From positions 10,534-74,533 of the forward strand of contig JBQLZQ010000016.1 of assembly GCA_052168355.1 (NCBI GenBank): a DNA stretch of 64,000 nucleotides, given 5' to 3'. The position numbers and the translations under genes were made by a program. This document shows, one piece after another, positions 1,916 to 8,009 of this stretch. A model generated the notes under the pieces. The model worked only from the letters and a program-made list of their open reading frames with translations. It made no database searches and had not been told where the DNA came from. Each line of letters begins with the position of its first letter. The first letter of the stretch is position 1. Origin of the DNA: Inquilinaceae bacterium. GTDB taxonomy: Bacteria; Pseudomonadota; Alphaproteobacteria; DSM-16000; Inquilinaceae.

Positions 1916-3397
1916 TCAGGCTGCCGCCTTTTGCGATGCCCCGACCTTCTTGAGATCGAAGTTCGGCGGCGGCAGGCCGCGCATGCTGGTGTCGGCGGCC
2001 AGCGCCTCGATCTCGCCCAGCTTGGTCTTCAGATAGGCCGCGATCTGGGCCTGGACCGCCGTCACACCCGTCATCTGGATCTGGGCCGCCGCCTTGCCCA
2101 CCCGGCCGGACTTGACCGCCGCCATGATCTTGGCCCGCGCCCGGTCGGGCGCCGTCAGATCGATCGGCGCCAGCCCGCAGGCATTGGTGACGCGGGTGAG
2201 GATAGCGTGGATATCGTTGGACGGCAGGCCAACGAAGAACCCCTCCAGCGCCGACGCCTCGCCGGCCAGGATGGCGCGATGGAAGATGGTGTTGCCGTCG
2301 CTGTCATACTGCAGCAGCAGCGACAAGAGCGGGTTGGCCGGGGCCGGCGAGTCCCGGTCTATGATCACCGGCTGGCGGACGGGTTCGCCGCGGACCAGCT
2401 TTTTCACGGCCAGATCGTCGTTGATCATCAGCGCCGTCATCTTGCGCAGGTGGGCAACCTTGCCGGCCGCCAGACCCTTGAACAAGATCCCTTCCCGGCG
2501 GCAATCGCGGCGCAGCAGCTTGCGGCAGATATAGGCCTGACGGAACGCCTTGGCGGTCGCCGCGTCGGGCGGCGCCATGGCCTTGACCGCATCGTTGGCG
2601 TGGGCGATCAGCAGGCGCAGCAGATCCTCGAACATGCCGTGATTGGTGACCGTGATCAGCGTGAAAAACGCGGTCGCCCCGTCATCGGGGTCGCAATAGT
2701 CGAAGAACAGGCGGCAGGTGGCGGCGCGCAGCGTGGGGTCGGCATTCGGTGCCAGGGCCTGCTTGAGCACGTGCTGGGACAGGAGGCCGCGGTTGCCGTC
2801 CAGATCTTCGCGGAAGATCAGGCTCATCATCTGGTTGCGGGTTGCCTCGTCGCCGGCTTTCTCGGAAATGGCCGCTTCGATGTTCTCGATCGACAGGTGC
2901 TTGGTCTGCACCAGGGCGTTGAGCGACTGCCATTTGGGCGACGGCGTCAGCATCTTGCCCAGCGGGCTGACGCCGTGCTTGTTCCGGCGCGAGAAATCGA
3001 CGTCGAGCGACAAAAGGATGTGCGCCATCTTCAGGGTCTCGGCGCCCTCGTTCTGGCGCAGGCTGTCGGCCAGATAATGCCAGATCCCGTTGCCGTCCCC
3101 GTCCTCGTGGCTCAAAAGACCGTAAACCCGTTCCGGGGCGCCGGCTTCCCAATGGGCCTTGGCGACCTGCAGCACGGCCAGGGCCTCGCGCACGTCCTGG
3201 CGGGCCAGCCGGTACTGCAGGTAATTTTCGCCCTGACGCCCGATGGCCCGATACAGCCGGTCGGAATTGTCCTCGAACTTGATCCAGTCGGCCAAGAAGG
3301 ATGCGAACTTGCCCGTCCGCTTGGCGAACCGGTCGGCAATGTCGCGATCCACAAGCTCCAGCGGGATGGATTTGGGCGCGGTGGCGGTCTGGGGCAT
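1916..3397 (-). CDS. hypothetical protein with ankyrin-like repeat segments
   Basis: Long ORF with a protein-like composition. ATG at 3397 is preceded by GAAGGG, and the track start at 3403 is TTG. Segments such as DGNTIFHRAILAGEASALEGFF and DGNGIWHYLADSL...NKHGVSPLGKML resemble the ANK consensus. I did not recognise a family. Confidence 0.65.
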   Translation of the reverse strand: MPQTATAPKSIPLELVDRDIADRFAKRTGKFASFLADWIKFEDNSDRLYRAIGRQGENYLQYRLARQDVREALAVLQVAKAHWEAGAPERVYGLLSHEDGDGNGIWHYLADSLRQNEGAETLKMAHILLSLDVDFSRRNKHGVSPLGKMLTPSPKWQSLNALVQTKHLSIENIEAAISEKAGDEATRNQMMSLIFREDLDGNRGLLSQHVLKQALAPNADPTLRAATCRLFFDYCDPDDGATAFFTLITVTNHGMFEDLLRLLIAHANDAVKAMAPPDAATAKAFRQAYICRKLLRRDCRREGILFKGLAAGKVAHLRKMTALMINDDLAVKKLVRGEPVRQPVIIDRDSPAPANPLLSLLLQYDSDGNTIFHRAILAGEASALEGFFVGLPSNDIHAILTRVTNACGLAPIDLTAPDRARAKIMAAVKSGRVGKAAAQIQMTGVTAVQAQIAAYLKTKLGEIEALAADTSMRGLPPPNFDLKKVGASQKAAA

Positions 3398-3503
3398 CGG
3401 CAAAACCCTTCGGCCTTCATGGCGGGACGGCGCTGACCGCGCGGGGGTGGCGGAGCGCGTCGGTCTTACGCCTGGCGAGTAAAGAACTTCCTTAGAGATA
3501 TGG

Positions 3504-4844
3504 TTACCGCCGAAAGACGCCGACCAGCTCCAGATGCGGCGACCACAGGAACTGGTCGACGGGCGTCACCCGCTCCAGCCGGTACCCGCCATCGCACAGC
3601 AAGCGCGCGTCGCGGGCGAAGGACGCGGGCTGGCACGATACCGCCACCACCAGCGGCACGGCCGACGCTGCCAGGCTGGCCGCCTGGTCGCGCGCGCCGC
3701 TGCGCGGCGGATCGAACAGCACGGCGCCAAACCGGTTCAACTCGGCCGGCGTCAGGGGGACGGCCATCAGGTCCCGGGTCGCGGTTTCGACCGGCCGCGG
3801 GGGAGAGGCCCGGCGCGATGCGGCGGTCAGGGCGGCGACCGAAGCGCCGTCGCTGTCGACGGCGAAAACCCTCGCGCGCGACGACAGGGGCAGGGCGAAC
3901 GTGCCCGATCCGCAGAACAGGTCGGCGACCGGGCCGGCGTCGCCGACCGCCGCGGTCACCAGGCCGGTCAACGCCGCCGCCCCGGCCGCGGTGGGCTGCA
4001 GGAACCCACCGGGCGGTACGGTCACCGGCACCCCGCCGATATCCAGGGTTCCCGTGCGGCGATGGGCGATCGGTTCTGCCGGACCGGATCCCGACCGCCA
4101 GGACAGCCGGGCCAGGTCCGCGTCGGCGGCGAACCGGGCCAGCGCCTCGCGGCCCTTCAAGTCGGGTGCGGAGTCGCCGATCAGCAGAACGTCCAGACCG
4201 TCGTCGAGCAGGGTGACGGCCGCGTCCAGCCCGCCGCTCCGGTCCAGCACCGATGCCATGGCGGGGCGCAGGATCGGCAGCAGGGCCACGATCTCGGGCC
4301 GGAGAACCGCGCAGGTCTCCAGGTCGACGATGCGATGGCTCCGATGGGCATTGAATCCCAGAACCACGCCGTCGCGTCCGTGCCGGGCGGCAAAGGTGGC
4401 GCGTCGCCGGCTGCCCGGCTGCATGGCCATGACCGGTTCCACGACACCGGCAGCCAGCCCCGCCCGCTCCAGCGCCCGCGTGACCATCGCGCGTTTCCAC
4501 CGGCGGTTGGCGTCGGCCGACAGGTGCTGGGTCAGGCAGCCGCCGCACCTGCCGAAATGGGGGCAGGGCGGCACCACCCGGTCGGGACCGGGCTCCAGGA
4601 CGGTCACCAGGTGCGCGGCGATGCCGTCCCCCCTGGCGGCACCCAGCCGGCCCCGGATCCGGTCGCCGGGCGCCGTCAGGGGCACGAACACCGTTCGTCC
4701 CTCGTAAAGGCCGATCCCGTCGGCCCCGTCTCCCAACCGGTCGATGGCAAGCTCGATCTCGGGCCCACCCTGCCCCGGGGGGCGGGATCCGGGCCCGGCC
4801 GGGCGTCGTTTCCGGGGCCGCCGTCTGTGGCGCGGTCGCGTCAT
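3504..4844 (-). CDS. class I SAM-dependent RNA (uracil-5) methyltransferase, RlmD/RumA-like
   Basis: The translation has a TRAM-like N-terminus, the Cys cluster CPHFGRCGGC, the SAM motif FCGSGTFALPL, and LFDPPRSGA plus a C-terminal catalytic region. ATG at 4844 is the first Met before the conserved part. The track ORF extends to 4970. Confidence 0.85.
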   Translation of the reverse strand: MTRPRHRRRPRKRRPAGPGSRPPGQGGPEIELAIDRLGDGADGIGLYEGRTVFVPLTAPGDRIRGRLGAARGDGIAAHLVTVLEPGPDRVVPPCPHFGRCGGCLTQHLSADANRRWKRAMVTRALERAGLAAGVVEPVMAMQPGSRRRATFAARHGRDGVVLGFNAHRSHRIVDLETCAVLRPEIVALLPILRPAMASVLDRSGGLDAAVTLLDDGLDVLLIGDSAPDLKGREALARFAADADLARLSWRSGSGPAEPIAHRRTGTLDIGGVPVTVPPGGFLQPTAAGAAALTGLVTAAVGDAGPVADLFCGSGTFALPLSSRARVFAVDSDGASVAALTAASRRASPPRPVETATRDLMAVPLTPAELNRFGAVLFDPPRSGARDQAASLAASAVPLVVAVSCQPASFARDARLLCDGGYRLERVTPVDQFLWSPHLELVGVFRR

Positions 4845-4977
4845 GAACGGACAAGTGCCATGGTGGGCGATGCGGGGCAAGCACGGGCGGACTGGCGGGG
4901 CGTCGGGCGATTCCCTATCTTTATGGGGGTCGGCCGCGTGTGAGGCCGAAGCGCGCGGGATCGGGGACAAGCAACGT

Positions 4978-5571
4978 ATGGTCGATGTGACCGGCCTGGC
5001 CGGAAGAATTCAGGGCATGCTGGTGCGGCCGGACGCCACCCTGCTTGAACACGGCCGGCCGGTGCCCCCCTGGCCCGTGGTGGCGCGGGAACATGCGGCG
5101 CCGCTGATCATCGCCAGCGCCTCGGTGTCCTTCGTTCTCTATTGGATTTTCGGCATGCCCGCCGTGGGTGTCGTCGAAGCGCCCAGCCTGACCGAGGCGG
5201 TGTTGGGCTTTGTGCTGAGGGTCGTCGTCAACTTCGCCGGCCTGGCGCTGATGGCTCTGGTTGTGCGGGTGTTTTCCGCCATGTTCGGCGGGTCGCCGGA
5301 TTTCAATGCCAGCTATGTGCTGGTGGCTTTGGCCATGACCCCCTATTACGTCGGCGAGGCGGTGCTGCCGCTGCCTGTCGTCGGTGGGCTGCTGGCCTTT
5401 GGTGGGATGATCTTCTCGCTGATCATCCTGTACAAGGGGGTGCCGCCGCTGCTCCGCGTGCCGCAGGAAAACCGGTCGAAGCATTTCGCCCTGACCCTGG
5501 TGTCCCTGTTCCTGGCGACGATGGTCGCGGCCCTGATCCTGGGCCCGTTCCTGCTGATGGCGCCGACCTGA
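4978..5571 (+). CDS. Yip1-domain family membrane protein
   Basis: ATG at 4978. A soluble N-terminus is followed by about five hydrophobic helices, as in the Yip1/YIPF-type topology. The upstream part of the track ORF is Arg/Gly-rich junk. Confidence 0.7.
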   Translation: MVDVTGLAGRIQGMLVRPDATLLEHGRPVPPWPVVAREHAAPLIIASASVSFVLYWIFGMPAVGVVEAPSLTEAVLGFVLRVVVNFAGLALMALVVRVFSAMFGGSPDFNASYVLVALAMTPYYVGEAVLPLPVVGGLLAFGGMIFSLIILYKGVPPLLRVPQENRSKHFALTLVSLFLATMVAALILGPFLLMAPT

Positions 5572-5577
5572 AGGGCG

Positions 5578-6144
5578 TCATGCCATCAGCTTTAGTAGAG
5601 TCAGCAGTTTCCTGAGATCGTGGTCGTAAGCGGCCGCGCGGCTCAAGTCGTCCAGGGAGAACCGTCTCTCGAGATCTGCGGCGGGCGCGACCTTCGCGTA
5701 GTTGGGCCAAACCTTTTTCAGCTCTCTCTCCGCGATGTCCCTTGGAACCTCGCGCGTCGCCTGGCCCTCGTGGAGTCGGAGCAGAAGCCCTTCAAGACTG
5801 GGGCGCTGGCGGATGACGCTGAATGCCGAATTGTCCGTCAGCGCAAGCGCCGTCGTAACGCGGTTCGCCGACTCGCCATGCTGTCCGCTGAGCAGGTCAT
5901 CGTCGAAGAGGAGGATCGCGTGCTTATAGTCACCCTTCCTCGTCGCTTTGGTGTTTCGTAGTCTGATAGCATCCTCGACTCGCCGTAGGACGTCACCGCG
6001 GTGCAGAACATGGACGTCCAGATGAAATGGCAGGCTCTTCCCGTCAATCAGGCGCTGCAGCCATGCAGCAAAGGCTTGTTCGCCTTCTCCCTCGCAACCC
6101 ACGAAGATGCGCGCGCGTATAGGACGGATCGGTCGGCGCGTCAT
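5578..6144 (-). CDS. RloB-like / TOPRIM-type small protein, partner of the upstream ATPase
   Basis: The N-terminal motif RIFVGCEGEGEQAF (CEGEGE encoded at 6079-6096) matches the ...CEG..TE... head typical of RloB-like proteins. An acidic LLFDDDLL (DxD-like) motif lies downstream. ATG at 6144 is 20 nt after the ATPase stop, and an alternative GTG at 6186 would overlap that gene. Confidence 0.7.
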   Translation of the reverse strand: MTRRPIRPIRARIFVGCEGEGEQAFAAWLQRLIDGKSLPFHLDVHVLHRGDVLRRVEDAIRLRNTKATRKGDYKHAILLFDDDLLSGQHGESANRVTTALALTDNSAFSVIRQRPSLEGLLLRLHEGQATREVPRDIAERELKKVWPNYAKVAPAADLERRFSLDDLSRAAAYDHDLRKLLTLLKLMA

Positions 6145-6163
6145 CGTGAGATCGACGCAGGTC

Positions 6164-7378
6164 CTAGCCGATATGCGGCACGGCACCCAGCTCGCCGCCT
6201 AGATATTTCTTCATCAGGCTAGGCTCACGGCGGAGACCGAGGATGTCGCGTACGCCGAACACGGTGGTGGCACCGGTGCTGTCTTTGTTTGTCAGGAAGA
6301 TCTGTTCCTTTTCCAAATCGTCCAGAACACTCGGGTTGTGCGCCGTGAAGAAAAGCTGAGCGCCATGGGGGTTGCGATCCTCACTGTCGAACCATCTGAG
6401 CAGTTCGGGTATGACCAGAGAGTGCAAGTCGGCGTCCAACTCGTCGATCACCACGACGTGGCCCGATTGGAGAGCGTAGTGGATACGCATGAAGACTTCC
6501 AGAAACCGGATCGTCCCATGGCTTTCATCGGCAGGTTGGATCGGCCGATGAAGTCCGTCATGGATGAACTGCCCCCACGGGCCGGAAGGTCCTTCGACGA
6601 TCTGAAGCTCGTTCAAGCCGATGTCCAACCTCTGAAGTTCTCGGTTCAGGGCCAACAACGCGTCCGGGTTGTCGGCGTAGAATGAGAAAATCGCCCCGAG
6701 CTCGACAGCCTTTTTTTGGCCGACCAGATTTGTGCCGAGCCTCCGTACGTCTTCCCAGATCGTTACGGAAAGAGGGTGGTTTAACGTCGCCAAGGTGGCG
6801 ATGACGGAGGAGTTCGGCTTGATCGCCTTGAACCTGGGATCGCTTGAGGAAAGTTCGAACTCATCGCCTACCTGAACCGATTGTTCCTGACCGGCAACAC
6901 GCTTGAAAAGCCGCCGCAGCCTTTTCCCGGGCCTATAGGAAAGGGATTCGTAGCCAACGACCGCTCGGCGGTGATGTCCGCTGTCTCCATTTGCCCAACG
7001 GTATGCGATGGCAAGGTCGTATTGGAACCAGAAATCAGTATTTCCGATCCACCGGGCCTCGAACTCCATAGAGATCCGAGTAGGGTGCGAGGCACTGTTC
7101 TCGGTCATGAAGGGCGAAAAATGAGGGATCATCTCGTCAGGCTTGAGGGCAATGCTATTGGTGACGAAATCGATCACCGACGTGATCGCCCTGATGACCG
7201 TCGATTTCCCCGAGGCGTTCGGACCGTAGAAGGCTATCGTCGCCGGAATTAGCTCGCGCGCCCCCGAGCGCGAAAGCCGGAATGCAGGGCGTGACGGAGC
7301 GTTCTTTGGAACCCTGAACGTCAAATCCACCCGATCCCGAATGGAATAAAAGTTTTCGATTGAGAGCGACCGGATCAT
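6164..7378 (-). CDS. ABC/SMC-like AAA_21-type ATPase
   Basis: Walker A GPNASGKST is encoded at 7199-7225. A signature-like ESHGTIRFL, Walker B HVVVIDELDADLH and H-loop FFTAHNP are also present, with a C-terminal YLGGELGAVP tail. GAGGAA lies upstream of ATG 7378. G+C is visibly lower than in the flanks. Confidence 0.85.
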   Translation of the reverse strand: MIRSLSIENFYSIRDRVDLTFRVPKNAPSRPAFRLSRSGARELIPATIAFYGPNASGKSTVIRAITSVIDFVTNSIALKPDEMIPHFSPFMTENSASHPTRISMEFEARWIGNTDFWFQYDLAIAYRWANGDSGHHRRAVVGYESLSYRPGKRLRRLFKRVAGQEQSVQVGDEFELSSSDPRFKAIKPNSSVIATLATLNHPLSVTIWEDVRRLGTNLVGQKKAVELGAIFSFYADNPDALLALNRELQRLDIGLNELQIVEGPSGPWGQFIHDGLHRPIQPADESHGTIRFLEVFMRIHYALQSGHVVVIDELDADLHSLVIPELLRWFDSEDRNPHGAQLFFTAHNPSVLDDLEKEQIFLTNKDSTGATTVFGVRDILGLRREPSLMKKYLGGELGAVPHIG

Positions 7379-7411
7379 GAGTTCCTCGCCGGGTTGCAGA
7401 CGGCGACCCTA

Positions 7412-7424
7412 TCACAATATGTGA
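7412..7424. promoter_or_regulatory. inverted repeat TCACA-ATA-TGTGA in the AT-rich leader of the ATPase operon (possible operator)
   Basis: Arms of 5 bp with a 3-nt spacer lie 34-46 nt upstream of ATG 7378, in the most AT-rich stretch of the window. Confidence 0.2.
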
Positions 7425-7514
7425 ATTCAGCGCGCTGTTTAAACGACAAGTCGACGTTTTTTTGTCGAAATTCGGTTAATAAGTCTGCACTTACGCTCTT
7501 AAATCTCCCTTTCG

Positions 7515-8009
7515 TCAAAGAAACGCCGTCAGCCGTTCCTTCTGCCCGTCGGTCAGGGCCTTGCCGGTGCGGGCCTTGAGGTCGAACAGGACGCTCACCG
7601 TTTCGGCCGTGGAGATGCAGACATCGCCGTGGAAGATGGCCTGGCTGTAGGTGAAGGAACTGCCGCCCACCCGGACCAGGCGCGTGCCGATGTCCAGGGC
7701 CGCGGGGTGGGTCAGTTCCCGGTGAAAGTCGATGGTGAACCGCACCACCACCGTCGCCGTGTCGCGCATTCCGTCCAGCAACGCGGCGGCGTTGAAGAAC
7801 TCCAGCCGGCCGGTCTCGAAATAGACCCCGATGGCGTTGTTGTTGACGTGTCCCAAGGGATCCAGGTCGGCGAAACGCGTCTGCTCCCGGCACCAATGGG
7901 GATAGGGCGCCCGGGTCCGGGCGTTGGGGGCGGTTCTGGTGTCTGACACGGGCGGGCGGTCCTTGGCTGTCGTGCGCCTGGGCGCGGGGCAGGGCCACCC
8001 ATAGCCCAT
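7515..8009 (-). CDS. acyl-CoA thioesterase, 4HBT/YbgC-like hotdog fold
   Basis: FADLDPLGHVNNNAIGVYFETGRLEFF is the typical 4HBT catalytic region. The start is uncertain. GTG at 7949 would give about 145 aa, and the N-terminal 20 aa of the track ORF look non-native. Confidence 0.8.
   Translation of the reverse strand: MGYGWPCPAPRRTTAKDRPPVSDTRTAPNARTRAPYPHWCREQTRFADLDPLGHVNNNAIGVYFETGRLEFFNAAALLDGMRDTATVVVRFTIDFHRELTHPAALDIGTRLVRVGGSSFTYSQAIFHGDVCISTAETVSVLFDLKARTGKALTDGQKERLTAFL

Follow-up and report, generated by a model that had tools for sequence, protein, structure and literature searches.

Background

AbiL and RloB have already been placed among the systems that combine an ABC ATPase with a Toprim protein (PMC11464382, PMC10440598, PMC12065111, PMC13064643). 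AbiL, the founding member, was isolated through its phage-resistance phenotype, the lactococcal system acts after phage transcription, and AbiLii is a predicted Toprim/OLD-like nuclease (PMC13064643). AbiLii from F. nucleatum was shown to be toxic in E. coli and, in one published test, an AbiLi provided in trans failed to relieve the toxicity of its AbiLii (PMC3985639); the RloB-node toxin of C. algidicarnis is neutralised by its own AAA ATPase (PMC10440598). RloB and DUF4276 have been described as Toprim superfamily members with a Glu and a DxD (PMC12065111), and HHpred connects RloB to OLD_TOPRIM (PMC10440598). For more distant systems, AriB of PARIS is a tRNase that acts on tRNA anticodon loops (PMC11464382, PMC12409363), and a 2026 preprint describes the same for P2 Old (bioRxiv 10.64898/2026.07.10.737580). 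AbiL/RloAB pairs are catalogued as defence systems (PMC13064643).

Here, we analysed a two-gene islet lying in a 64-kb window, which is the whole stretch of DNA under study. An initial annotation had pointed to lactococcal AbiL and proposed the pair as a possible member or variant of the ABC-ATPase + TOPRIM anti-phage theme. The profile searches that it had called for were all favourable to it, and both proposals are supported by our results, namely an AbiLi match at 1e-62 for the ATPase and family-wide RloB and AbiLii matches for the small protein, together with the published placement of AbiL/RloB.

Results

Anatomy and composition of the islet

The two genes (Table 1) are separate, co-directional ORFs of the minus strand and were found where the initial annotation had placed them; the close spacing that it described also stands, with the correction that 19 nt (6145-6163), and not 20, separate the ATPase stop from the ATG at 6144. 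This ATG is preferred over the GTG at 6186 because both the N-terminal consensus of the family (MxRRxxxxxRxxIFxGxEG) and the NCBI annotation (P0001, 188 aa) agree with it. Note that the source metagenome-assembled genome (MAG) labels the small protein 'hypothetical protein'. The motifs quoted beforehand (GPNASGKST at 7199-7225, ESHGTIRFL, VVVIDELDADLH, TAHNP, IFVGCEGEGEQ and LLFDDDLL) all occur in the translations, except that the range given for IFVGCEGEGEQ (6079-6096) spans only CEGEGE.

The atypical composition suspected from four hand counts (34, 34, 23 and 45 G+C of 60, all exact) was found again over the full islet, whose G+C content is 0.570 vs 0.661 for the window. This value is the minimum among all 1937-bp windows of the 64 kb and lies ~3.5 SD under the mean, and the GC3 of the cassette is 0.70 vs 0.83-0.88 in six neighbouring genes. 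This anomaly exceeds chance and is real, and the two-gene islet, foreign in composition, most likely marks a small horizontal acquisition between yip1 and the thioesterase gene of the source genome.

Table 1 Coordinates of the islet, its genes, protein motifs and boundary features in the 64-kb window
Feature	Position	Strand	Description
Islet	5578-7514	(-)	Two genes and a 136-nt A+T-rich leader
ATPase gene	6164-7378	(-)	404 aa, ATG start
Small-protein gene	5578-6144	(-)	188 aa from ATG; alternative 5578-6186, 202 aa from GTG
Leader of cassette	7379..7514	(-)	136 nt, A+T-rich, G+C 0.46; read from sequence
Weak terminator-like hairpin and T-tract	7451..7468	(-)	Inside leader, downstream of thioesterase stop; 5-pair stem
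Walker A / P-loop GPNASGKST	7199..7225	(-)	G52-T60, Lys58
ABC signature-like ESHGT	6512..6526	(-)	E285-T289; E285, S286, G288 and T289 invariant in 69/69
Walker B and D-loop VVVIDELD	6434..6457	(-)	V308-D315; D312 in 68/69, E313 and D315 in 69/69
H-loop TAHN	6335..6346	(-)	T345-N348; H347 and N348 invariant in 69/69
C-terminal tail GLRREPSLMKKYLGGELGAVPHIG	6167..6238	(-)	G381-G404; strongly conserved, beyond Pfam AAA_21 match
Toprim-like motif 1, C-E18-G19-E-G-E22	6079..6096	(-)	C-terminal end of predicted strand 1
Toprim-like motif 2, D81-D-D83 (DxD)	5896..5904	(-)	C-terminal end of predicted strand 3 (73-81)
P115-S-L-E118-G-L-L-L-R123 motif	5776..5802	(-)	After predicted strand 4; further invariant acidic residue
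Left copy of 11/12 direct repeat, CCGTTCCTGCTG	5545..5556	(+)	In 3' end of yip1
Right copy of bracketing repeat, CCGTTCCTTCTG	7533..7544	(+)	In 3' end of thioesterase gene

Boundaries and neighbourhood

The leader presumably holds the promoter; it gave no match to a strict sigma-70 consensus and no Rfam family, and a Shine-Dalgarno sequence (GAGGA, 7383-7387) lies 4 nt ahead of the ATPase ATG. The hairpin within the leader may end the thioesterase transcript, and it is not significant by itself because only 2 terminator-like sites were observed in the region vs 3.3 expected. At the opposite end, the islet stops 6 nt (5572-5577) from the Yip1 stop and this gap contains no terminator-like site, in keeping with the first description. 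As for the direct repeat bracketing the islet, shuffling the two boundary windows gave 11/12 in 5 of 500 cases in a post hoc test, and it is uncertain whether its two copies are part of the cassette.

The islet is wedged between core genes, as had been claimed, since its flanks encode housekeeping functions: FtsX/HlyD efflux, an RNA U5-methyltransferase, Yip1, a 4HBT thioesterase, Ldh and CYTH-CHAD proteins, Pgk, AraC, a hydrolase, AMP nucleosidase and FtsY. The only PADLOC match among the neighbours was a weak, generic methyltransferase match of the RNA U5-methyltransferase (mad2, 1.8e-7), and the module is considered solitary because none of them gives a specific PADLOC defence match. Neither defence island, integrase nor restriction-modification (R-M) genes were found near the islet, in agreement with the initial annotation; hsd and other R-M genes were absent within ~10 kb on either side, and there was no helicase among the neighbours.

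The first gene encodes a complete ABC ATPase

The prediction of an ABC/AAA_21-type ATPase was borne out by Pfam AAA_21 (85.7 bits for a cut-off of 27, 7.6e-24, profile positions 3-304 of 304) and by the PADLOC AbiLi model PDLC02335 (1e-62), which scored ~40 orders of magnitude ahead of any other defence model. The protein has at least 918 homologues, is conserved across phyla (46-50% identity, mean column identity of 69%), and residues G52, N54, A55, S56, G57, K58 and T60 of its Walker A are invariant in 69/69 homologues. While a search of the PDB with the sequence only gave no match, the AF2 model (pLDDT 88.2, falling at the extreme C-terminal end) gave 109 Foldseek PDB matches at E <= 1e-3, with PtuA (8EEA, 1.6e-11), retron PtuA and Rad50 at the top and Rad50 and SMC heads at E ~1e-10. 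No long coiled coil was found and NCBIfam recF was matched at E 0.11 only. The protein belongs to the AAA_15/AAA_21 class as a complete, AbiLi-like ABC/SMC-head ATPase. In addition, the AAA_21 match stops at residue 353, and the C-terminal tail, in which 12 residues are invariant in 69/69 homologues, is a possible docking or latch element.

The second gene encodes a divergent RloB/AbiLii-like protein

An RloB-type partner had been proposed for the ATPase, and this assignment stands for the family more clearly than for the protein itself. RloB is its only Pfam match (25.2-25.5 bits, E ~2e-5, profile positions 1-147 of 195), below the gathering threshold of 31.5 bits for PF13707, and AbiLii is its only PADLOC match, weak and partial (E 7e-5 to 1.5e-4, ~20-21 bits, positions 22/23-66, i.e., 45 of 170). 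Among its 84 relatives, 54 match RloB (best E 1.2e-11), 58 match AbiLii (best E 2.4e-12), and one matches the MADS mad4 model. Moreover, plasmid proteins of Mesorhizobium and Asticcacaulis matched by tblastn (1e-18 and 9e-15) reach 40.1 and 35.8 bits on Pfam RloB, above the threshold, with tblastn matches to other plasmid copies up to 2e-17; plasmid homologues found with BLAST share 35-37% identity and carry the label 'RloB family protein' or 'RloB domain-containing protein'. The family profile also aligned with an annotated phage RloB (hhalign, probability 95.9%, E 5.5e-9). Structure prediction, a check put forward with the initial annotation, gave an AF2 model of high confidence (pLDDT 95.6) whose only significant Foldseek match in BFVD is a phage 'RloB-like protein' (A0A8S5LTA7, E 6.4e-5, TM 0.58). 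The small protein is a divergent member of the RloB/AbiLii-like family, tied firmly by BLAST and profile comparison to proteins that pass the threshold, in a clade of 745 representative clusters at E <= 1e-3.

The conserved Glu followed by a DxD, pointed out beforehand, proved to be nearly universal in the family. Indeed, E18 and G19 are invariant in 84/84 homologues and position 22 is always acidic (E in 67, D in 17), D81 is found in 84/84 and D83 in 83/84; P115 and E118 are found in 84/84 and R123 in 83/84, with PCLEGLLL as the counterpart of the third motif in phage RloB. In the AF2 model, E18 directly follows the predicted strand 11-17, and the order of elements along the chain (beta-alpha-beta-alpha-beta-alpha-beta) fits that of the Toprim fold, a three-layer alpha/beta structure with sheet order 2-1-3-4. 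Unsupervised profile alignment brought the Glu and the DxD into register with their catalytic counterparts in P2 Old and GajA: in hhalign, motif 1 aligned with LLVEGKTE of P2 Old, the equivalent of LLIEGPSE of GajA in a phmmer alignment, and motif 2 with ILADCD of P2 Old.

The motif register of the proposed TOPRIM-like site held, whereas significant similarity to solved Toprim structures did not follow. In the PDB, Foldseek gave no match at E <= 1e-3 for the small-protein model and no Toprim or OLD structure among the best 50, the best matches being generic alpha/beta folds (TM ~0.4); hhalign of the family profile gave no match to P2 Old alone and a non-significant one, in the right register, to a small OLD/GajA alignment (E 0.08). 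Neither DUF4435 nor OLD-like_TOPRIM was matched by the small protein, and none of its 84 relatives matched a Toprim Pfam family. The Toprim assignment rests on motif register and published analyses, because direct tests against the solved OLD and Gabija Toprim domains were not significant.

The pair is conserved and occurs on mobile elements

In 10/10 other loci examined, the ATPase gene is followed by an RloB-like gene in the same order. These loci include a Stenotrophomonas phage, in which the pair forms a moron-like insert, and conjugative plasmids, where it lies beside an integrase or among toxin-antitoxin (TA) and antirestriction genes; the pair is usually solitary, and its G+C content is below that of its flanks here and in 9/10 of these loci. 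None has hsd genes beside the pair, and the MT-A70 gene carried by the phage is the only methyltransferase observed. Two relatives combine a broken copy of the presumed toxin gene with an intact presumed antitoxin. An apparent ATPase-nuclease fusion (P0241) was rejected as a frameshift read-through.

Discussion

Our results suggest, with a probability of roughly 0.7, that the islet represents an operon of the AbiL / RloA-RloB type gained by horizontal transfer, in which an ABC ATPase would restrain a small RloB protein with a Toprim-style acidic site acting as a nuclease. The anatomy of the cassette is operon-like and the catalytic motifs are intact in both proteins. The pair belongs to an already known, catalogued AbiL/RloAB system type and is, in this respect, a fairly ordinary find. 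By analogy, we propose the ATPase as sensor and antitoxin and the small protein as a Toprim-type nuclease effector and toxin, and a role in phage defence or abortive infection appears the most likely for the cassette. According to this model, the RloB-family alpha/beta core would carry an acidic metal site in the style of Toprim proteins (Glu18, Glu22, Asp81-x-Asp83 and Glu118), and the ATPase oligomer, as suggested by published relatives, would bind the nuclease, hold it inactive and act as its antitoxin. The same relatives suggest that the ATPase may sense a phage-infection cue and, via ATP binding or hydrolysis, free or activate the nuclease, which would then cut a nucleic acid required by both cell and phage, so that growth stops and the infection is aborted. 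The least certain step is the substrate, for which RNA of the translation apparatus, and in particular the anticodon loops of tRNA as for PARIS AriB and P2 Old, may be guessed by analogy, DNA being less likely.

A related but unlikely reading is that the cassette represents a separate clade of ABC-ATPase + mini-Toprim systems that has not yet been named, because the ATPase is unusually conserved across phyla and its invariant C-terminal tail of 24 residues lies beyond the known domain, and because its 21-kDa partner is so divergent that it mostly escapes the standard models for RloB and AbiLii. The trigger and substrate of such a clade could be its own and not simply those of AbiL or PARIS, e.g., the tail could latch the nuclease and the target could be tRNA or rRNA. 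Since the small protein is labelled as hypothetical and stays below threshold for Pfam RloB and PADLOC AbiLii, members of the clade are probably under-counted by automatic defence-system finders. With its compact size (404 + 188 aa), deep alignments and high-confidence models, the clade might provide a convenient model system to find out if tRNase activity held back by the ATPase is a general property of ABC-ATPase + Toprim systems.

The properties that support the AbiL/RloAB-type operon could also be read differently. The presence of homologous pairs on conjugative plasmids among MazF/PemK TA genes, as well as the solitary position of the cassette outside any defence island, would fit a selfish addiction module, kept since its loss kills the cell and having no role against phages; in the NetFlax study, AAA-ATPase + RloB/Toprim pairs are classed as type II TA systems, and one of those pairs did not protect E. 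coli against phages (PMC10440598). We nevertheless hold this to be quite unlikely, given that the founding AbiL came from a phage-resistance phenotype (PMC13064643), that a phage genome carries the pair as a moron-like insert, as is known for PARIS and Old, and that an ATPase of ~400 aa would be a costly antitoxin unless it were also a sensor. The two relatives with a broken toxin and an intact antitoxin fit the decay of either kind of module, and the addiction and defence readings are compatible and not mutually exclusive. A cassette that has become a relic of an old transfer, with intact-looking ORFs no longer expressed or active, is very unlikely: the leader yielded no promoter consensus, the partner gene is decayed in relatives and the source is a metagenome-assembled genome, but both ORFs are full length and keep every residue invariant across 69 and 84 homologues, catalytic motifs included, behind a good ribosome-binding site for the ATPase.

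The structural matches of the ATPase to Rad50 and SMC heads, and the ABC ATPase + Toprim theme shared with RecF/RecR, would rather evoke a housekeeping system of nucleic-acid repair or maintenance, similar to RecF + RecR (Toprim) or Rad50/SbcC + nuclease. This is highly improbable in view of the foreign composition (GC3), the patchy distribution across phyla with plasmids and phage included, the dispensability of the partner gene in some relatives, the lack of a long coiled coil, and the contrast between recF (E 0.11) and AbiLi (1e-62). No more probable is an orphaned accessory of type I R-M, comparable to Campylobacter RloA/RloB and dependent on hsd genes located elsewhere or lost; although the Pfam family is named for the RloB of hsd loci (PMC10440598, PMC12065111) and one relative matches mad4, no hsd or other R-M genes were found within ~10 kb on each side here, and no hsd genes beside the pair in the other loci (0/10), where the phage MT-A70 gene was the only methyltransferase.

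The solved structures nearest to the ATPase model (E ~1e-11 to 1e-10) are those of Septu and retron PtuA (8EEA, 8EE4, 8SUX and 9L7P), which belong to the same AAA_15/21 defence ATPase class with a TM of 0.4-0.5 and 12-16% identity, but whose partner is the HNH nuclease PtuB and not an RloB/Toprim-like protein. Class 1 OLD (phage P2 Old) and Gabija GajA also couple an ABC ATPase to a Toprim nuclease, and the EGxxE and DxD of the small protein align with LLVEGKTE / ILADCD of P2 Old and LLIEGPSE / KTDND of GajA in a similarity that is not statistically significant; in both, ATPase and nuclease are fused in one polypeptide, and Gabija requires the helicase GajB in addition, whereas two ORFs and no helicase neighbour are found here. 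RloA/RloB pairs (Pfam RloB PF13707, DUF4276) have the Glu, DxD and PxLEGLLL motifs in common with the small protein, but the Campylobacter rlo loci contain type I R-M genes, which are not found near the pair, and the partner is sub-threshold for RloB.

AbiL from Lactococcus lactis, compared through the family-derived models of PADLOC and DefenseFinder, is likewise a two-gene operon in which the ATPase gene precedes that of a small RloB-type protein. In the present pair, the ATPase matches AbiLi at 1e-62 and its partner, a candidate AbiLii-type protein, is encoded immediately downstream in the same orientation, with only a weak and partial match to AbiLii; the host here is a high-G+C alphaproteobacterium (Inquilinaceae MAG) in which the pair is chromosomal, whereas AbiL is borne by a low-G+C plasmid. 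In PARIS (AriA + AriB, class 4 OLD-like), the AAA_15/21 ABC ATPase and the Toprim-type effector are likewise two separate proteins. The PADLOC AriA model (PDLC02980) does match the ATPase (1.7e-23, residues 49-353, model 3-304 of 304), apparently in a generic way because the range equals that of Pfam AAA_21, and AriB is a DUF4435/OLD-Toprim protein of ~35 kDa, whereas the partner here is an RloB-type protein of 21 kDa (188 aa) without DUF4435 or OLD-like_TOPRIM match. The toxin-antitoxin-like logic of PARIS is, for the pair, the best mechanistic model available (PMC11464382, PMC12409363).

Organization and composition of the islet

The two minus-strand genes proposed in the initial annotation are indeed present where they were placed, all of the quoted peptide motifs were found in their products, and they form an operon-like pair that shares one leader, which carries a good ribosome-binding site. 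Two details had to be adjusted: the spacer between the ATPase gene and the ATG of the small gene is short as claimed, but measures 19 nt rather than 20, and the motif IFVGCEGEGEQ exists, but the range given for it (6079-6096) spans CEGEGE only. For the small gene, the ATG at 6144 is a likelier start than the GTG alternative, since the protein then begins with the N-terminal consensus of its family, MxRRxxxxxRxxIFxGxEG, and the public annotation starts there too. The description of the islet as low in G+C also holds, and the four hand-made counts given with it were exact. Indeed, islet G+C is 0.570 compared to 0.661 for the window, the minimum of all 1937-bp stretches across the 64 kb (~3.5 SD under the mean), and GC3 is 0.70 in both islet genes versus 0.83-0.88 in six neighbours.

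As had been stated, no restriction-modification, integrase or other defence gene is adjacent: none lies within ~10 kb, and the flanks are housekeeping genes. Exact protein matches assign the window to a metagenome-assembled 'Inquilinaceae bacterium' genome. The window holds no additional copy of either gene and there is no tRNA gene near the islet, the closest ones being at 29.9 and 56.7 kb, while the leader gave no Rfam match at E <= 1 and no strict sigma-70 promoter match. Regarding mobile-element hallmarks at the islet, no integrase was found and the sole repeat is a bracketing pair of 12-nt direct repeats that match at 11/12 positions, a level reached in only 5 of 500 cases when the 80-nt windows at the two boundaries were shuffled in a post hoc test, with both copies inside coding sequence. 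For these two reasons, the repeat is simply noted here, and it may represent recombination microhomology or chance.

Among the neighbouring ORFs, one of 495 aa with coding-like composition (GC3 0.88) adjoins an RNA methyltransferase gene and has no Pfam match at 1e-5 and no PADLOC match. In addition, the Yip1 ORF in its long form, which starts at 4744, overlaps with the divergent methyltransferase ORF; the Pfam Yip1 match begins only at residue 117, and the internal ATG at 4978 (MVDVTG...) is a more plausible start.

Features of the islet, its surroundings and the related loci (positions in the window unless a locus is named)
Feature	Position	Sequence	Remark
Islet	5578-7514		both genes and leader
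ATPase ORF	6164-7378 (-)		404 aa, ATG start
Small ORF	5578-6144 (-)		188 aa, ATG start; 5578-6186 with GTG start
Direct repeat, left copy	5545-5556	CCGTTCCTGCTG	3' end of flanking gene
Direct repeat, right copy	7533-7544	CCGTTCCTTCTG	3' end of flanking gene
Walker A		GPNASGKST	essentially invariant (69-sequence alignment)
Signature-like motif		ESxGT	essentially invariant (69-sequence alignment)
Walker B and D-loop		IDELD	essentially invariant (69-sequence alignment)
H-loop		AHN	essentially invariant (69-sequence alignment)
ATPase C-terminal tail	6167-6238	GLRREPSLMKKYLGGELGAVPHIG	residues 381-404; outside Pfam AAA_21 match
495-aa ORF	1916-3403 (-)
Long Yip1 ORF, before internal ATG	4744-4977
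Methyltransferase ORF	3504-4970
Mesorhizobium plasmid			pair adjoins tyrosine recombinase
Conjugative Asticcacaulis plasmid			pair among MazF toxins and antirestriction gene
L167, Stenotrophomonas phage vB_SmeS_BUCT708	2748-4399		opposite strand, between phage early genes
Candidatus Sulfotelmatobacter MAG contig			pair adjoins integrase fragment
L002 partner	5192-5449		internal deletion, 85-aa remnant without Glu...DxD core
L179 partner	6222-6341 and 6362-6748		frame break, gene split over two frames

The ATPase

The assignment of the larger protein to the ABC/AAA_21 ATPases is borne out by a Pfam AAA_21 match over the full profile (85.7 bits versus a cut-off of 27). Within defence models, PADLOC AbiLi matches it at 1e-62, ~40 orders of magnitude ahead of any other; the PADLOC 'AriA' match spans the ranges already covered by Pfam AAA_21 and appears generic. 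More than 900 homologues were found at E < 1e-10, mostly with 46-50% identity, and the few with organism labels belong to Verrucomicrobiota, Gamma- and Alphaproteobacteria, and Candidatus Sulfotelmatobacter. For the AlphaFold model (pLDDT 88.2), 109 chains of the PDB matched at E <= 1e-3, led by PtuA (Septu, retron Ec78/Eco7 complexes) and Rad50/SMC heads (best E 1.6e-11). The protein has the standard ABC head of defence-type ATPases, with a short helical insert in place of a long coiled coil. The C-terminal tail, likewise essentially invariant, has the consensus GLRREPSLMKKYLxGELGAVPxIG, with 12 residues invariant in 69 homologues, and may serve in docking the partner or in regulation.

The small protein

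While a single-sequence search with the small protein returned 3 relatives, a profile built from those returned 153, and an exhaustive profile search reached 745 representative clusters at E <= 1e-3. Its sole Pfam match is RloB, at 25.2 bits and thus under the 31.5-bit gathering score, its sole PADLOC match is a partial one to AbiLii (E 7e-5), and neither NCBIfam nor PHROGs returned a match. For the family as a whole, the proposed RloB-like identity is firm: among 84 relatives, 54 match RloB (best 1.2e-11), 58 match AbiLii (best 2.4e-12) and 16 match DUF4276. Homologues on plasmids (35-37% identity) carry RloB annotations, and two of these proteins exceed the Pfam threshold (40.1 and 35.8 bits); the family profile aligns with an annotated phage RloB at 95.9% probability. 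The AlphaFold model (pLDDT 95.6, pTM 0.89) has a beta-alpha-beta-alpha-beta-alpha-beta core and a C-terminal part made of helices, and its single significant fold match in two libraries is a protein labelled 'RloB-like protein' from an uncultured myovirus (E 6.4e-5, TM 0.58). E18, G19, D81, P115, E118 and W146 are invariant (84/84), D83 is nearly so (83/84) and position 22 is acidic in all; in the predicted model, E18 ends strand 1 and D81-x-D83 ends strand 3.

Whether this family is of Toprim type, as was also claimed, was approached from several sides. Foldseek of the model against PDB found generic alpha/beta folds only (TM ~0.4), with no Toprim in the top 50, and nothing was obtained from a profile search of PDB sequences, from hhalign of the family against P2 Old, or from a tblastn search of plasmids with the C-terminal region of P2 Old; a viral-contig scan for Old returned only 9 relatives, all close. 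From phmmer of P2 Old against PDB, the Old/GajA motifs read LLVEGKTE / LLIEGPSE and ILADCD / KTDND, and by the numbering of that alignment the GajA motif Glu is residue 379, which we take to be the catalytic Glu of GajA. In an unsupervised hhalign comparison of the family profile with a small OLD/GajA alignment, VGCEGEGE fell on LLVEGKTE and LLFDDDLL on ILADCDFL, which is the expected register, although the score is not significant (E 0.08); the P2 Old stretch concerned is the part under Pfam OLD-like_TOPRIM. Motif, predicted topology and literature therefore agree with the claim, while the direct fold and profile tests fell short of significance, so that we regard membership of the RloB family as demonstrated, and a Toprim-type metal-dependent nuclease as well supported and not independently proven.

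Linkage and mobility of the pair

Each of the ten other loci examined has the ATPase gene first and the RloB-like gene behind it in the same orientation, with spacings from a 4-nt overlap to ~30 nt, and pair G+C lies below that of the flanks in nine. Several of these loci are mobile or adjoin mobility genes (table), the remaining pairs standing solitary among housekeeping genes as in the window, and small-protein homologues occur on 16 plasmids, 11 of them conjugative. As an example, the phage pair of L167 (an ATP-binding protein and RloB) adjoins an MT-A70 methyltransferase and has a G+C of 0.34 in the ATPase match region versus 0.51 in flanking phage sequence; it is a moron-like defence insert. 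In two loci (L002 and L179), the partner is damaged and the ATPase intact, which could be effector decay or assembly error. Within the same loci (L001, L004 and L178-L181 compared to window 5578-7378), the ATPase shows 46-50% identity and the partner 35-40%; this markedly stronger ATPase conservation is the opposite of what might be expected if the ATPase were the fast-evolving phage sensor.

A candidate natural ATPase-RloB fusion from the representative search (P0241, 584 aa) has its conserved ATPase C-terminus replaced by out-of-frame, unrelated residues before the RloB part; it was therefore considered a frameshift read-through and rejected as fusion evidence. Relatives of the yip1-thioesterase interval were sought with Yip1, which found none in genome or metagenome contig collections. 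A Pgk scan gave 80 alphaproteobacterial loci (best: an Inquilinaceae MAG at 72% and Inquilinus sp. at 71%), with synteny limited to the CHAD gene, and an Ldh scan of metagenomes reached 66% identity at most.

Possible mechanism and alternative explanations

For lactococcal AbiL, both genes are needed, and the phage is stopped at a step after transcription (PMC13064643). AbiLii of F. nucleatum is toxic in E. coli and is not neutralised in trans by its AbiLi (PMC3985639), and a C. algidicarnis RloB-node toxin with an AAA ATPase shows toxin/antitoxin behaviour (PMC10440598). In PARIS, the Toprim tRNase AriB is sequestered by AriA and becomes free once a phage protein provides the trigger (PMC11464382, PMC12409363), and P2 Old is an abortive tRNase too, according to a 2026 preprint (10.64898/2026.07.10.737580). 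In the present pair, the ATPase retains all of its catalytic motifs, and the partner has an RloB fold that bears a cluster of conserved acidic residues. By analogy, the RloB nuclease would be kept inactive by an ATPase oligomer until a cue from infection, working via the ATPase, releases it, and cleavage would lead to growth arrest and aborted infection. The target would most likely be tRNA or another translation RNA, because AbiL blocks after transcription and two tRNase precedents exist.

A purely selfish toxin-antitoxin module is compatible with most of this evidence and does not exclude defence. A RecF/RecR-like repair role, in contrast, is contradicted by the foreign composition, by the patchy and mobile distribution and by the profile scores, and a restriction-modification accessory role lacks any hsd neighbour in the window or in the relatives examined. 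That the pair is a dead relic is unlikely, since every invariant residue is retained. The interpretation given in the initial annotation is judged correct.

Comparison with known systems

The architecture is already catalogued and its anatomy holds no surprises. Functionally, the cassette would act like the ABC-ATPase and Toprim defence systems (OLD class 1, Gabija, PARIS, AbiL and MADS). It is not PARIS because the DUF4435 effector is absent, and it is neither class 1 OLD nor Gabija because its proteins are unfused and the helicase of Gabija is missing. Its remaining value lies in offering a compact model for the AbiL mechanism and in showing a detection gap in how defence systems are annotated. 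Sequence relationships place the cassette with AbiL/RloAB, in a divergent clade whose partner falls under the curated thresholds, and for this reason the source annotation reads 'hypothetical'.
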